This document shows, one piece after another, positions 1,774 through 23,356 of a stretch of DNA of 32,000 nucleotides. The notes beneath the pieces are model-generated. The model ran no database searches, had not been told where the DNA came from, and saw only the letters and a program-made list of their open reading frames with translations. This stretch comes from Kiritimatiella glycovorans (GTDB taxonomy: Bacteria; Verrucomicrobiota; Kiritimatiellia; Kiritimatiellales; Kiritimatiellaceae): contig NZ_CP010904.1 in the NCBI RefSeq assembly GCF_001017655.1, forward strand, positions 2,190,001 through 2,222,000, given 5' to 3'. The first letter of the stretch is position 1. Each line of letters opens with the position of its first letter. A program made the translations under genes and the position numbers.

Positions 1774-2462
1774 GGAGTGCGCTGACGCCGTCAGCGCTTT
1801 TTTCAGAGCGGTGACGTAAGTCACCGCACTCCAGAACGCTTCTCGATTCTCTCGCCACCCTTCTCGCGGTCTGGAGTGCGCTGACTCAGTCAGCGCTTTT
1901 TCCAGAGCGGTGACGCAGGTCACCGCACTCCAGAACGCTTCTCGATTCTCTCGCCACCCTCTCACGGTCTGGAGTGCGCTGACGCCGTCAGCGCTTTTTC
2001 CAGAGCGGTGACGCAGGTCACCGCACTCCAGAACGCTTCTCGATTCTCTCGCCACCCTCTCACGGTCTGGAGTGCGCTGACGCCGTCAGCGCTTTTTCCA
2101 GAGCGGTGACGCAGGTCACCGCACTCCAGAACGCTTCTCGATTCTCTCGCCACCCTTCTCGCGGTCTGGAGTGCGCTGACTCCGTCAGCGCTTTTTTCAG
2201 AGCGGTGACGTAAGTCACCGCACTCCAGAACGCTTCTCGATTCTCTCGCCACCCTTCTCGCGGTCTGGAGTGCGCTGACTCAGTCAGCGCTTTTTCCAGA
2301 GCGGTGACGCAGGTCACCGCACTCCAGAACGCTTCTCGATTCTCTCGCCACCCTCTCACGGTCTGGAGTGCGCTGACTGAGTCAGCGCTTTTTCCAGAGC
2401 GGTGACGCAGGTCACCGCACTCCAGAACGCTTCTCGATTCTCTCGCCACCCTTCTCGCGGTC
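1774..2462 (+). repeat. Tandem array A: 7 units of a 98-99-bp double-hairpin (REP-like) repeat
   Basis: Units start at 1774, 1873, 1971, 2069, 2168, 2267 and 2365. The unit core is GGAGT-GCGCTGAC-N3-GTCAGCGC-T5-6-CCAGA-GCGGTGAC-N4-GTCACCGC-ACTCC, followed by a conserved 38-39-nt linker. Confidence 0.95.
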
Positions 2463-2564
2463 CTCAGCGATCCTGCGGTGTTGCGCATAAGAATTCCGTT
2501 AACCATCCCTTGCATGATGCCGCGTGCTTGATCCTTTCATCGCACCGCTTGATAATTGCTCTTC

Positions 2565-3107
2565 ATGAACGCTCCCGCCGACTACTGGCCTCACGCTCCC
2601 ATGCATCGTCTCTCTGAGAAAGGCGGTTATATGGTCACGGCGGGTATCTATCAGAAACGGCCGATCCTGAATACGCCGGAGAAGCGTACACTCGTGATGA
2701 AACAGCTGTTCGAATCTGCGAACCATTTCGGATGGAGGCTGCAGGCGTGGGCCGTGATGATTAATCACTACCATTTTGCCGCCCTTTCGCCCGAGGATCC
2801 TTCCAATCTGACCCGGATGATTTCCTCGATCCATAAGTGGACCGCCCTCGAACTGAACCGAATCGATGGTATGCGCGGCCGCCGGGTCTGGCACAATTAC
2901 CGCGAGACGCATGTCACATTTCAGACATCGTGGCTGGCGAGACTGCGGTACATTCATCAAAATCCGGTTCATCACGGGCTCACGGACCATGCTGCCAGCT
3001 ACCGGTGGTGCTCGCAGGCGTGGCTTGAGCAGAAGGCGAACCGGGCCTTTGTGCATACACTCAGCCGGATCAAGACCGATCGCATTCATGTCGCGGATGA
3101 GTTCTGA
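2565..3107 (+). CDS. rayT: REP-associated tyrosine transposase (RAYT; IS200/IS605 TnpA-like HUH/Y1 family)
   Basis: It carries the HUH motif in VMINHYHFAAL and the catalytic-Tyr motif LRYIHQNPVHHGL. Its size of ~180 aa and its position between REP-like arrays also fit. The track start at 2556 is TTG; the ATG at 2565 is preferred. Confidence 0.8.
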   Translation: MNAPADYWPHAPMHRLSEKGGYMVTAGIYQKRPILNTPEKRTLVMKQLFESANHFGWRLQAWAVMINHYHFAALSPEDPSNLTRMISSIHKWTALELNRIDGMRGRRVWHNYRETHVTFQTSWLARLRYIHQNPVHHGLTDHAASYRWCSQAWLEQKANRAFVHTLSRIKTDRIHVADEF

Positions 3108-3119
3108 TTGTCGCGGCCT

Positions 3120-3550
3120 GGAGTGCGCTGACGCCGTCAGCGCTTTTTCCAGAGCGGTGACGCAGGTCACCGCACTCCAGAACGCTTCTCGATTCTCTCG
3201 CCACCCTCTCACGGTCTGGAGTGCGCTGACTCCGTCAGCGCTTTTTTCAGAGCGGTGACGCAGGTCACCGCACTCCAGAACACTTCTCGATTCTCTCGCC
3301 ACCCTTCTCGCGGTCTGGAGTGCGCTGACGCCGTCAGCGCTTTTTTCAGAGCGGTGACGTAAGTCACCGCACTCCAGAACACTTCTCGATTCTCTCGCCA
3401 CCCTTCTCGCGGTCTGGAGTGCGCTGACTCCGTCAGCGCTTTTTTCAGAGCGGTGACGTAAGTCACCGCACTCCAGGACACTTCTCGATTCCCATCGCCG
3501 CCCTTCTCGCAGTCTGGAGTGCGCTGACTCCCTCATCGCTTTTTCAATCC
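3120..3550 (+). repeat. Tandem array B: 4 full units plus 1 decayed unit of the same 98-100-bp repeat
   Basis: Units start at 3120, 3218, 3317, 3416 and 3516. The last is degenerate (GGAGTGCGCTGACTCCCTCATCGCTTTTTCAATCC). Orientation is the same as array A. Confidence 0.95.
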
Positions 3551-3554
3551 ACTT

Positions 3555-3752
3555 CTACGCTCCCCGATCGCGGCAGAGCGCGCGGACGGACCGGTTGTAG
3601 GTCGCCTCCCCTTCGGCGCTGAAAAAGCAGCCGGGGATCTCGCCCGCGGCGCGGTGCATCCTGACGCACTCACAGCACAGCCCCTTCTTTCCGCATGGAT
3701 AGGTGCAGGTGCATTCCGCCTTGTTGCGTTCAATATTCGGACAGTCGGCCAT
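3555..3752 (-). CDS. Small cysteine-rich protein (65 aa, 9 Cys), uncharacterised family
   Basis: ATG at 3752 is preceded by GGGAGG. Sequence is MADCPNIERNKAECTCTYPCGKKGLCCECVRMHRAAGEIPGCFF, with a C-x-C-T-Y-P-C...C-C-x-C pattern reminiscent of small conserved Cys-rich DUF proteins. I recall the name DUF6485 but cannot verify it. Confidence 0.5.
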   Translation of the reverse strand: MADCPNIERNKAECTCTYPCGKKGLCCECVRMHRAAGEIPGCFFSAEGEATYNRSVRALCRDRGA

Positions 3753-9846: not shown

Positions 9847-9919
9847 CAAACGTCCCGTGCGTAAAAGCGGCCTATTTTCTCCGCCCGCCGCCGCGCGTGC
9901 AAGGCGATAACGCGAAAAC

Positions 9920-10381
9920 GGGGAAACTCGTGGCAACCGTGGCAACGCCACGCCTGGCGGCGGGCTCGGCGTCGTCGGAAAACTCGGGGAAACTCGTGGC
10001 AACCGTGGCAACGCCACGCCCGGCGGCGATGCTCGGCGTCGTCGGAAAACCCGGGGAAATTCGTGGCAATCGTGGCAACGCCACGCCTGGCGGCGGGCTC
10101 GGCGTCGTCGGAAATCCCGGGGAAATTCGTGGCAACCGTGGCAACGCCCCGCCCGGCGGCGGGCTCGGCATCGTCGGAAAACCCGGGGAAACTCGTGGCA
10201 ACCGTGGCAACGCCCCGCCCGGCGGCGGGCTCGGCGTCGTCGGAAAACCCGGGGAAAATCGTGGCAACCGTGGCAACGCCACGCCTGGCGGCGGGCTCGG
10301 CGTTGTCGGAAAACCCGGGGAAATTCGTGGCAATCGTGGCAACGCCCCGCCTGGCGGCGGTGCTCGGCAAAATCGCTCCCC
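9920..10381 (+). repeat. Tandem array of 7 x 66-67-bp G-rich repeats
   Basis: Units start at 9920, 9986, 10053, 10119, 10185, 10251 and 10317. The unit is GGGGAAAYTCGTGGCAAYCGTGGCAACGCCMCGCCYGGCGGCGGGCTCGGCGTCGTCGGAAAAYCC. It contains a CGTGGCAA doublet and, in units with CGCCACG, a hairpin CGTGGC-AAC-GCCACG. Confidence 0.95.
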
Positions 10382-10800
10382 CGATTGCCACGCTCTCCCC
10401 CCGACTGCCACGACTTCCACGATCCCCCGACTGCCACGCTCTCTCCCCGATTTCCACGACTCCCCGCTCCCCCGATTGCCACGCTCTCCCCCCGCTCCCC
10501 CGACTGCCCCGATTTCCACGACTCCCCGCTCCCCCGACTGCCACGCTCTCCCCCCGACTGCCACGATTTCCACGATCCCCCCGATTGCCACGATTTCCAC
10601 GATCTCTCCCCGCTCCCCCGACTGCCACGATTCCCACGATCTCTCCCCGCTCCCCCCGACTGCCACGATTTCCACGATCCCCCGATTGCCACGCTCTCCC
10701 CCCGACTGCCACGATTTCCACGATCCCCCCGATTTCCACGACTGCCACGATCTTTCCCCGCTCCCCCCGACTGCCACGATTCCCACGATCCCCCCGCCCC
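10382..10800 (+). repeat. C-rich block of short degenerate repeats carrying the inverse motif (C/T)TGCCACG / TTTCCACG
   Basis: CCACG occurs 23 times in about 420 bp, for example CCGATTGCCACGATTTCCACGATC. The units resemble the reverse complement of the GGGGAAATTCGTGGCAATCGTGGCAACG part of the 66-bp unit. Strand G/C skew flips at about 10381. Confidence 0.9.
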
Positions 10801-10847
10801 CGCTCCCGGATTGATCCGCGGCCTTCGATCCTGCATGCTCACCGGTG

Positions 10848-16356: not shown

Positions 16357-16387
16357 GGCCACAAAAAGGCACAGGAGACACAGAAGA
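16357..16387 (+). repeat. Dispersed ~30-bp intergenic motif, copy b (GGCCACAAAAAGGCACAGGAGACACAGAAGA)
   Basis: It lies between divergent mnmE and the HAD gene, 44 bp upstream of copy c. Confidence 0.8.
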
Positions 16388-16400
16388 GGTTTTTTCCATC

Positions 16401-16424
16401 GGCCACAAAAAGGCACAGGGGACA
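16401..16424 (+). repeat. Dispersed intergenic motif, copy c (GGCCACAAAAAGGCACAGGGGACA)
   Basis: It is in tandem with copy b and abuts or overlaps the first candidate ATG of the HAD gene. Confidence 0.8.
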
Positions 16425-17350
16425 TGGATGAACAGACTCCCCTTTTCATCGCGCGCCGTTTCGCGCATGCTCGGTCCATGACTGAAAATCCGCATCCGCT
16501 ATCGACGTTCCGAAGGTGTCACGACACGCTGGTCGGCATCGACTCCGACGGCTGCGTCTTTGACACCGTGGCGCACAAGCAGCACGTCTACGTCCAGCCG
16601 CTGATTATCGAATACTGGGGGCTCGAAGCGGCGGCCGACCGCGTACGCGAGCTGGCGGATCACATCAACCTGCACTCCACGCACCGCGGCGGCAACCGGA
16701 TCGCGAACCTGCTTCACCTCTTCCTGGCGATGCGTGAGGACCGGGAGATTCGTCGTTCCGGCGCAACCCTGCCGCCCGTCGATGCACTGCGCGCCTTCAT
16801 CGAGGCCGGTCATCCTCTGAACAACGAGGCGCTGGAGCGCGAGGCGCGGCGCAGCGGCGACCACGAGTTGCAGAAGGTGCTCGACTGGAGCCGCGAAGTG
16901 ACCCGCCGGATGGCGGAGGAGATGGAACCGCTCCCGCCGTTTGAACACGCGGCGGAGGCGCTGCGGCTGATCGCGGAACGTTCGGATGCCGTCGTGATTT
17001 CGCGCACGACCGAAGACGCGCTGGTACGCGAATGGACCGCGAGCGGGCTGCACGGGCATGTCGATGCGATCGCGGGCCAGGAACGCGGGGAAAAGGCGGA
17101 CATCCTCCGCCAGGCGGATCGGGACTATGCTCCCGGGCACGTCCTTGTGCTCGGCGACGCCCCCGGCGACCTGCGTGCCGCGCGCGAGACCGGCGCGCTC
17201 TTCTTCCCGATCCTGCCCGGCCGCGAGGCGGAGAGCTGGCGGCGCTTCATCGACGAGGGATACGAGCGGTACCTGAACGGCACCTTCGCCGGCGAATACG
17301 AGCGCGCATGGATTGAGGATTTCCGGTCGCAACTCGGCCGGGAGGGGTAA
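16424..17350 (+). CDS. HAD-superfamily hydrolase
   Basis: HAD motif I in LVGIDSDGCVFDT, and a later VLGDAPGDLRAA (motif IV-like). The start is ambiguous, either the ATG at 16424 or the ATG at 16478 (MTENPH). The track ORF from 15338 is an antisense-of-mnmE read-through. Confidence 0.6.
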   Translation: MDEQTPLFIARRFAHARSMTENPHPLSTFRRCHDTLVGIDSDGCVFDTVAHKQHVYVQPLIIEYWGLEAAADRVRELADHINLHSTHRGGNRIANLLHLFLAMREDREIRRSGATLPPVDALRAFIEAGHPLNNEALEREARRSGDHELQKVLDWSREVTRRMAEEMEPLPPFEHAAEALRLIAERSDAVVISRTTEDALVREWTASGLHGHVDAIAGQERGEKADILRQADRDYAPGHVLVLGDAPGDLRAARETGALFFPILPGREAESWRRFIDEGYERYLNGTFAGEYERAWIEDFRSQLGREG

Positions 17351-21911: not shown

Positions 21912-21929
21912 ACACAGATCTCCACAAGA

Positions 21930-22335
21930 GGACGGGGTGGAACCCGTCCCTCCACACCGACCCCGCGGGAACGGACGGGGTGGAACCCGTCCCTCCACAC
22001 CGACCCCGCGGGAACGGACGGGGTGGAACCCGTCCCTCCACACCGACCCCGCGGGAACGGACGGGGTGGAACCCGTCCCTCCACACCGACCCCGCGGGAA
22101 CGGACGGGGTGGAACCCGTCCCTCCACGCCGACCCCGCGGGAACGGACGGGGTGGAACCCGTCCCTCCACACCGACCGCAAAGAGGACGGGGTGGAACCC
22201 ATCCCTCCACGCCGACCCCGCGGGAACGGACGGGGTGGAACCCGTCCCTCCACACCGACCGCAAAGAGGACGGGGTGGAACCCATCCCTCCACGCCCACC
22301 GCAAAGAGGACGGGGTGGAACCCGTCCATCCAGAG
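21930..22335 (+). repeat. Tandem array of 10 x 40-43-bp hairpin repeats
   Basis: The hairpin GGACGGG-GTGGAA-CCCGTCC starts at 21930, 21973, 22016, 22059, 22102, 22145, 22185, 22228, 22268 and 22308. It is followed by CTCCACACCGACCCCGCGGGAAC (43-bp type) or CTCCAC(A/G)CCGACCGCAAAGA (40-bp type). The array fills the whole spacer between convergent macB and the M48 gene. Confidence 0.95.
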
Positions 22336-23212: not shown

Positions 23213-23238
23213 AGCCACAAAAAGGCACAAGAGGCACA
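23213..23238 (+). repeat. Dispersed intergenic motif, copy d (AGCCACAAAAAGGCACAAGAGGCACA)
   Basis: It lies 41-66 nt upstream of the M48 start, on the opposite strand. Confidence 0.7.
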
Positions 23239-23356
23239 TGTTTTCTGGAAGTCACCCTCTGCGCATTCCGGACGGAGCGTGCACTCCGGGTTCTTTGCAG
23301 ATTTTTGTGGAACTACTGAAATCGTAGCGGCTGGATTAGAAATCCGCTCGCGTCAC

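Follow-up and report, generated by a model that had tools for sequence, protein, structure and literature searches.

A RAYT gene between tandem arrays of paired REP-like hairpins in Kiritimatiella glycovorans: a probable REPtron with a GGAGT tag

What kind of system places a transposase-like gene between two arrays of one and the same hairpin repeat, both running in the same direction? The question is raised by Kiritimatiella glycovorans (NZ_CP010904.1), of which a 32-kb window was analysed; "the window" is this whole stretch of 32,000 nucleotides, and all coordinates are window positions. A preliminary description took an open reading frame (ORF) of about 180 codons in it for a repetitive extragenic palindromic (REP)-associated tyrosine transposase (RAYT) and the repeats on its two sides for REP-like material, and proposed that a regular array of paired REPs on both sides of a RAYT would be an atypical, possibly lineage-specific class. 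The locus is very probably a REPtron, that is, one RAYT gene inside tandem arrays of its own substrate. Its architecture is canonical and does not make a new class; what differs is the tag at the foot of the hairpins.

The arrays and their repeat unit

Tandem Repeats Finder delimited an upstream array at 1774–2462 (period 98, 7.0 copies, 95% matches, score 1245) and a downstream array at 3111–3544 (period 99, 4.4 copies, 94% matches, score 740). A unit table, made by cutting the sequence at every GGAGTGCGCTGAC, resolved them into 11 intact units of 98–100 bp and a decayed twelfth at 3516, in a single orientation throughout. The upstream units start at 1774, 1873, 1971, 2069, 2168, 2267 and 2365, and the downstream units at 3120, 3218, 3317 and 3416, followed by the decayed copy; the linker of the fourth downstream unit (3416–3515) is partly decayed. 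Both arrays sit between the convergent SIMPL (857–1720, + strand) and DUF6485 (3555–3752, − strand) genes and are therefore extragenic, with the decayed unit abutting the stop codon of the latter. The two co-oriented arrays that had been described around the ORF, here placed at 2565–3107, were thus recovered by both procedures, and the gene is flanked on both sides by inverted REP pairs, seven units upstream and four plus one downstream, near its stop codon. The features of the locus, in which the arrays resemble bacterial interspersed mosaic elements (BIMEs), are as follows.

1774..2463, + strand: upstream BIME-like array, seven head-to-tail units of 98/99 bp (Tandem Repeats Finder, unit table and alignment)
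1774..1797, + strand: first REP (GGAGT, 8-bp stem, 3-nt loop, then T6), which opens each of the 11 intact units
1808..1832, − strand: first inverted REP (iREP), GGAGT followed by GCGGTGAC-ttac-GTCACCGC, found once per unit
2455..2463, + strand: end of the last upstream linker (TCGCGGTCC), read from the sequence
2528..2556, + strand: sigma-70-like promoter, TTGATC-17-GATAAT, just upstream of the RAYT start; a consensus match only
2565..3107, + strand: predicted RAYT/TnpA_REP gene, 180 aa, with the HUH motif NHYHF and the catalytic-tyrosine motif RYIHQNPV
3111..3119, + strand: partial linker (TCGCGGCCT), 3 nt past the RAYT stop codon, leading into the downstream array
3120..3515, + strand: downstream BIME-like array, four units oriented as in the upstream array (Tandem Repeats Finder and alignment)
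3516..3550, + strand: decayed fifth downstream unit, with tag and left arm intact and the right arm mutated (CTCATCGC)

The segments 2455–2463 and 3111–3119 form a direct repeat (7/9) that brackets the RAYT segment, and 3111–3410 is 98% identical to 1962–2261.

Each unit is composed of a REP, a 10-nt T-rich linker (TTTTTYCAGA), an iREP and then a 38–39-nt linker that occurs in two variants. It holds two hairpins, GCGCTGAC-N3-GTCAGCGC and GCGGTGAC-N4-GTCACCGC, inside GGAGT/ACTCC, and to this extent the preliminary description holds for the unit in all its details. It had also drawn GGAGT/ACTCC as an outer stem enclosing the hairpins. The pairing exists, but it needs no element of its own, since it follows from the second palindrome repeating tag plus hairpin in inverted form. 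The element reads cTGGAGT-GCGCTGAC-N3-GTCAGCGC-T5-6 on the + strand and cTGGAGT-GCGGTGAC-N4-GTCACCGC on the − strand, the iREP appearing on the + strand as GCGGTGAC-N4-GTCACCGC followed by ACTCC. Each REP is made up of the GGAGT tag and a G+C-rich hairpin with an 8-bp stem, and REP and iREP together form a 60-nt doublet like the REP doublets forming hairpins (REPINs) of other bacteria. The pattern GAGTGCGSTGACN{3,4}GTCASCGC has 22 matches, two on opposite strands in each of the 11 units and 14 of them in the upstream array, where 0.00 are expected from 100 shuffles; + and − matches alternate, ~33 nt apart inside a unit, with 98/99 nt between units. As single-stranded DNA (ssDNA), the unit is predicted to fold either into two hairpins with the outer stem or into a single long REPIN-like hairpin (z −3.6 to −6.3).

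Two other readings of the repeats were set aside. In a CRISPR-like reading, the "spacers" are conserved linkers, and for a coding repeat, protein homologs are lacking. A protein search with a chimeric translation of all repeat frames returned 753 candidates, none of them significant, and is uninformative on dispersal. GC skew was examined and not used, because each unit has the tag on both strands.

Variation among the units had been placed almost entirely in the hairpin loops, and the invariant stems had been taken to argue for selection on structure. Among 10 intact units, none of 42 stem columns is variable, as against 10 of 58 non-stem columns (Fisher p = 0.0046), and five of the seven loop columns vary (p = 6e-5). 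Outside the loops, however, one position of the T-run and four linker columns are also variable, so that the first statement was slightly overstated. The variants are spread as a mosaic, the unit at 3120–3217 is identical to that at 1971–2068, and downstream units 2–4 share a private GAACAC linker variant. Because of this combination of mosaic variants, an identical unit in both arrays and a private downstream change, the pattern indicates exchange between the arrays together with homogenisation within each.

In all 11 units, the first hairpin together with its run of five to six T residues resembles a terminator on the + strand, whereas shuffled sequence would yield 3.2 such sites in the region. 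Neither strand has a T-run at the second hairpin, which does not qualify. From its sequence, the first hairpin probably terminates + strand transcription from the upstream SIMPL gene, in a secondary, exapted role. Such a role is compatible with that of a REP; for E. coli, REPs have been described as 3′ untranslated region elements.

These properties also suit a different explanation, in which a RAYT that is domesticated or inactive has become surrounded by a local minisatellite. Slippage or unequal crossing-over alone would have produced the arrays, any retention would be owed to their action as stacked intrinsic terminators or insulators, and no REP would be mobilised in this genome. The position of the terminator-like hairpins directly downstream of the SIMPL gene, the absence of any further copy from the window, and the fit of the variant mosaic and of identical units on both sides of the gene with recombination and gene conversion all lend this reading some weight, as does the K. 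glycovorans-specific REP/iREP junction, which had no match in a metagenome scan seeking copy-number variants. Yet only half of the unit is terminator-like, since the second hairpin lacks a T-run, and terminator and REP roles do not exclude each other. Taken with the conserved catalytic residues of the protein and the genome-wide dispersal of tag and hairpin in other hosts of the same RAYT clade, both described below, this makes the explanation an unlikely one.

The stable fold of the unit and the T-run after the first hairpin would likewise be expected of tandem small structured RNA genes, or of another RNA element unrelated to the transposase. We regard this as extremely improbable. No Rfam family matched at the gathering threshold or at E <= 1 (motifs such as Acido-Lenti-1 included), the only matches being chance ones to miRNA hairpins in other loci; there is no promoter-like site inside the units; tag and hairpin occur on both strands, as a DNA-level REP/iREP arrangement predicts; and the association with the RAYT is kept across phyla.

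The protein encoded between the arrays

As the preliminary description had it, the ORF product is, by sequence and predicted fold, a RAYT (TnpA_REP), a Y1 enzyme of the HUH type, and the inverted pairs of tag and hairpin around it have the form of cognate REP material. The only NCBIfam match is REP_Tyr_transpos (NF047646; E 3.9e-21). A single-sequence phmmer search of the PDB gave noise only, while a profile of 20 homologs had E. coli TnpA_REP (4ER8) as its sole significant PDB match (E 2.4e-7), with the HUH motifs (NHYHF / EHMHC) and the tyrosine motifs (YVHQNPVKHG / YIYINPVKHG) in alignment. The AlphaFold2 model (pLDDT 87.7, pTM 0.83) retrieved the same structure as the best Foldseek match (4er8_A, E 4.4e-9, TM 0.65/0.71), followed by the TnpA proteins of IS608 and ISDra2. 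The NHYHF and YIHQNPV motifs noted earlier are therefore present and align to 4ER8, and across the 20 aligned homologs they are invariant, H68, H70, Y129 and N133 among them. The catalytic residues are intact and conserved, which speaks against a minisatellite that has merely grown around an inactive gene.

Two further motifs are specific to this clade: an N-terminal WPHAPxH, also invariant in the 20 homologs, and a C-terminal YRWCS. The public gene model (P0001) has 158 aa and begins at an internal Met, 22 codons too late, whereas WPHAPxH is encoded by 2565–2630. Given the invariance of this motif among the homologs, translation is taken to start at the ATG at 2565 and the public model to be truncated; since that model has 158 aa, an exact look-up of the 180-aa protein in the assemblies gave no record. 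A profile search of 1.84 billion representatives, clustered at 50% identity, found 269 clusters at E <= 1e-30 and 12,528 at E <= 0.001.

Tag and hairpin in other genomes

Homolog loci were fetched from Pontiella desulfatans, two Kiritimatiellales metagenome-assembled genomes (MAGs), a JGI contig, Gallionella, Verrucomicrobia and further metagenomic contigs. At every one of them, the gene is flanked by modules that start with (T)TGGAGTGC-hairpin and end with hairpin-GCACTCCA(A), at a distance of ~10–250 bp, also in Ignavibacteria and Thermoanaerobaculia MAGs. Altogether, tag and hairpin flank RAYT homologs at at least ten loci in several phyla, some of them in tandem, as in the arrays beside the gene at L131 (165 bp × 2.7) and L125 (112 bp × 1.9). 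In the Ignavibacteria MAG (L052), a homolog of 33% identity has a co-oriented array (107 bp × 3.2) on one side and a downstream unit on the other, which is the same architecture as that of the K. glycovorans locus. The suggestion of a lineage-specific system therefore found no support: the same tag and hairpin accompany RAYTs in Kiritimatiellales, other Verrucomicrobia, Gallionella, Ignavibacteria and Thermoanaerobaculia.

The distal parts of the stems vary by lineage with compensatory changes (CTGAC/GTCAG, GAGAC/GTCTC, CCGAC/GTCGG, GGGAC/GTCCC and ATTCAC/GTGAAT), while GGAGT and the GC stem base are constant. In an alignment of 22 sequences, the rows of which were pre-selected for perfect stems, five of the eight stem pairs are changed on both sides (32 cells), a value reached by none of 500 shuffles.

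Some of these loci show further rearrangement. Upstream of the RAYT homolog of Gallionella (L126, 2300–2490), the tag alone is repeated three times (TGGAGTGCTTTATT), and an inverted-REP half (GCGGCG-tcgt-GCCGCC-GCACTCCAAAgct) four times with a 29-bp period; because of these tag-only and half-unit repeats, partial units appear able to amplify alone. In Pontiella desulfatans (L121, 4590–5850), an IS110-family transposase element lies inside the REP tag downstream of the RAYT (GGAG/TGCG, the slash marking the insertion), and in a second Pontiella assembly (L122, 700–840) the module is uninterrupted. IS110-family elements target REPs in other bacteria.

The flanking modules could also be seen as the left and right ends of an autonomous insertion sequence (IS) of the IS200/IS605 type that transposes as a whole. 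The Y1 HUH fold is common to the TnpA proteins of IS608 and ISDra2, the modules are co-oriented as IS ends would be, and the RAYT gene stands in differing neighbourhoods in different genera. However, both flanks at the K. glycovorans locus consist of the same repeated unit and not of distinct ends, the ORF list of the window contains no tnpB-like ORF, and by both structure and profile the protein comes closest to TnpA_REP. The best 120 of 143 homologs include a single K. glycovorans protein (P0001), and P0116 occurs in a single locus context in four samples. An autonomous IS is thus very improbable.

We then scanned 185,579 genomes with the pattern of tag plus hairpin; what follows holds among the matches listed. 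The REP was present in Acidobacteriota, Planctomycetota, Lentisphaerae/Victivallales, Kiritimatiellae, other Verrucomicrobiota, Ignavibacteria and KSB1. The −1 position, which the pattern leaves unspecified, is always G in Acidobacteriota, Planctomycetota, Kiritimatiellae and Lentisphaerae, and in the first two of these groups the unspecified flanks are near-uniform, with TG upstream and a T-rich stretch downstream; in Lentisphaerae and Ignavibacteria these flanks are less consistent. A few actinobacterial, myxobacterial and Oxalobacteraceae matches lack these flanks and resemble chance matches.

The dispersal is clearest in one Thermoanaerobaculia MAG, which has at least 83 exact REP copies in at least 48 separate 8-kb blocks and at least 30 inverted REP doublets of 69–115 bp, and in which 8 bp separate the end of the RAYT homolog (42% identical) from such a doublet. 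Such genome-wide dispersal in another host of the clade is not what a purely local minisatellite would lead one to expect. In a Kiritimatiellae MAG, four hairpins make up an intergenic module that has the same boundaries but no RAYT within 8 kb.

Seven Lentisphaerae/Victivallales loci (L004, L010, L039, L044, L045, L070 and L094) contain a conserved three-hairpin element that is near-identical across MAGs, in the order GAATGC-gaaa-GCATTC, GGAGT-GCGGTGAC-N3-GTCACCGC and GCGCAGAC-N3-GTCTGCGC-ACTCC. No Rfam match to this element was found in L004 and L010.

The window itself holds other repeats. A second family of hairpin repeats occupies 21926–22332, between a convergent pair of a MacB-like ABC transporter gene and an M48 peptidase gene; its 43-bp unit is repeated 9.6 times head to tail and reads GGACGGG-gtggaa-CCCGTCC followed by CTCCA (TGGAGG plus hairpin on the − strand). 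The second site of the family, 678–825, is a nearly perfect palindrome of 148 nt (RNA fold z −6.5 and −8.2) composed of two inverted copies of GGGAGG plus hairpin, with the loop TKCCAC and a compensatory stem change. This second hairpin family, the tag of which resembles GGAGT, may be a dispersed REP-like family of the K. glycovorans genome.

Upstream of a CbiQ-like/ABC transporter operon, an intergenic region of ~1 kb (9865–10845) holds one short motif in two blocks that face opposite ways: a 66-bp unit × 6.8, rich in CGTGGCAA, fills the left half, and the right half has ~40 copies of the inverse motif (TTGCCACG, CTGCCACGA, TTTCCACGA). No dnaA-type neighbour of this region was seen. Finally, a dispersed short repeat that begins with GGCCACAAAAAGGCACAGGAGACA has four copies in the 32 kb, all intergenic, at 851–881 (−), 16357–16387, 16401–16431 and 23213–23243 (+).

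A probable REPtron and its place among REP/RAYT systems

By analogy with E. coli TnpA_REP, the protein would bind the folded REP on ssDNA, recognise the unpaired tag at the hairpin foot, and then cleave and rejoin the DNA nearby; in this way, REP doublets would be mobilised in trans. The arrays would grow and shrink in whole units, from tag to tag, either because the transposase transfers strands between adjacent tags or by slippage and unequal recombination with gene conversion between the arrays.

Several points weigh against a REPtron. Within the window, the pattern of tag plus hairpin has no copy outside the two arrays, and mobility in K. glycovorans itself is an inference. The NF047646 score of 75.5 bits lies below the curated equivalog cutoff of 80, and Pfam Y1_Tnp, the profile originally proposed for checking the ORF, gives a sub-threshold 16.1 bits against a cutoff of 23. 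The invariant stems fit selection on structure, as had been argued, but recent amplification or quasi-palindrome correction could suffice to explain them, and the covariation of the stems between lineages comes from the pre-selected rows mentioned above. The tag, moreover, is GGAGT(GC) and not the canonical GT[AG]G (GTAG in E. coli), and the stems are perfect 8-bp palindromes, while those of E. coli are imperfect and the mismatch is needed for binding: E. coli TnpA_REP requires a mismatch in the REP stem (PMC3333891).

We nevertheless favour the REPtron, and its regular paired array on both sides of the gene, once thought atypical, has a direct precedent. RAYT genes are always flanked by inverted REPs, one third of them lie inside BIMEs, and E. 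coli yafM (tnpA_REP) has BIME-2 on both sides (Nunvar et al. 2010, PMC2817692). In BIME-2, REP/iREP pairs are repeated in tandem, the two members of a pair being joined by a short linker and the pairs flanked by linkers of alternative types; the copies are well conserved at each locus and differ in number between strains, and the structure of gene plus BIME has been named REPtron (Ton-Hoang et al. 2012, PMC3333891). Tagged REPs were already reported in the Planctomycetes–Verrucomicrobia–Chlamydiae (PVC) group, with dimer clusters reiterated in tandem (Di Nocera et al. 2013). Our literature search found no paper linking Kiritimatiellota to RAYTs or REPs, and a search for the REP sequence gave only unrelated primer and gene matches.

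What is modestly new is the conservation of the GGAGTGC tag and stem base across phyla with one RAYT clade. Across Acidobacteriota, Planctomycetota, Verrucomicrobiota/Kiritimatiellota and Ignavibacteria, the 9-nt tag and the GC(G) stem base are identical, frequently along with all of the 8-bp stem (GCGGTGAC/GTCACCGC), although the proteins are only 33–45% identical. This constancy contrasts with the rapid co-divergence of RAYT and REP described in Proteobacteria. The K. glycovorans REPtron may be part of a REP superfamily, "GGAGTGC-tagged" and so far undescribed, that goes with a RAYT clade of its own (NHYH, WPHAPxH and YRWCS; the 269 clusters above), a tentative proposal to which we give somewhat less than even weight. 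If it holds, it would imply an unusually constrained protein–DNA code or a host function of the hairpin.

In any case, the locus extends the REPtron or BIME type of organisation to Kiritimatiellota, the layout of a RAYT inside tandem REP pairs recurs in several phyla, and the public gene model is corrected from 158 to 180 aa. The near-invariant GGAGTGC tag with co-varying distal stems provides a simple finder for cognate REPs in uncultured genomes, and tag mutants set against stem swaps would make a clean substrate set for studying how RAYTs read DNA.

Among the closest counterparts is the REPtron of E. coli K-12, which shares with this locus a single Y1 HUH RAYT gene bordered on both sides by tandem REP/iREP pairs, the short inner linker and alternative longer outer linkers, the well-conserved local copies, the REPs beside the stop codon and the unpaired 5′ tag at the hairpin foot. 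Besides tag and stem, the differences lie in the host, which here belongs to the Kiritimatiellota, and in the protein, which is ~15% identical to 4ER8 in the structural alignment, has NHYH in place of EHMH and bears in addition the WPHAPxH N-terminus. The degeneracy of the GTAG tag given by Di Nocera et al. (2013) comprises GYAG, GYRG, GTRG, GTMG and GTGG; GGAGT(GC) falls outside it, so that the locus has the tagged-REP layout and is not a member of the GTAG family.

With the REPIN/RAYT systems of Pseudomonas and Enterobacteria (Bertels & Rainey), the locus has in common inverted doublets that can fold into one long hairpin and a RAYT flanked by doublets, of which K. glycovorans has one among the best 120 of 143 homologs, and in the Thermoanaerobaculia MAG also dispersed doublets. 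The doublet is, in contrast, compact here (60 nt with a 10-nt spacer) and amplified in tandem with a 38-nt linker, and the REP is kept between phyla, where the usual pattern is species- or RAYT-specific.

A precedent for the tag itself is catalogued in Table S1 of Quentin et al. (2018), in which the GGAGTG foot is listed once, for the Chloroflexus aurantiacus RAYT ABY36092.1. Its REP, GGAGTGCGGCAGC-cat-GCTGCCG, has the same foot and the same CG stem base but a different distal stem, and this RAYT is filed in subclass 2.2, the comparison being one of REPs. Judged by its motifs, our clade looks nearest to subclass 2.8 of the same study (NHYH / W[YH] / YIHYNP, with a proline-rich N-terminus). The two share NHYH, a W-H motif (VWHNY here), a proline-containing conserved N-terminus, a length near 180–200 aa and relatives in unrelated phyla; they differ in the tyrosine motif, which is Y[IV]HQNP here, and in that the members of subclass 2.8 are cyanobacterial and have long REPs with a 5′ GT[AG]G.

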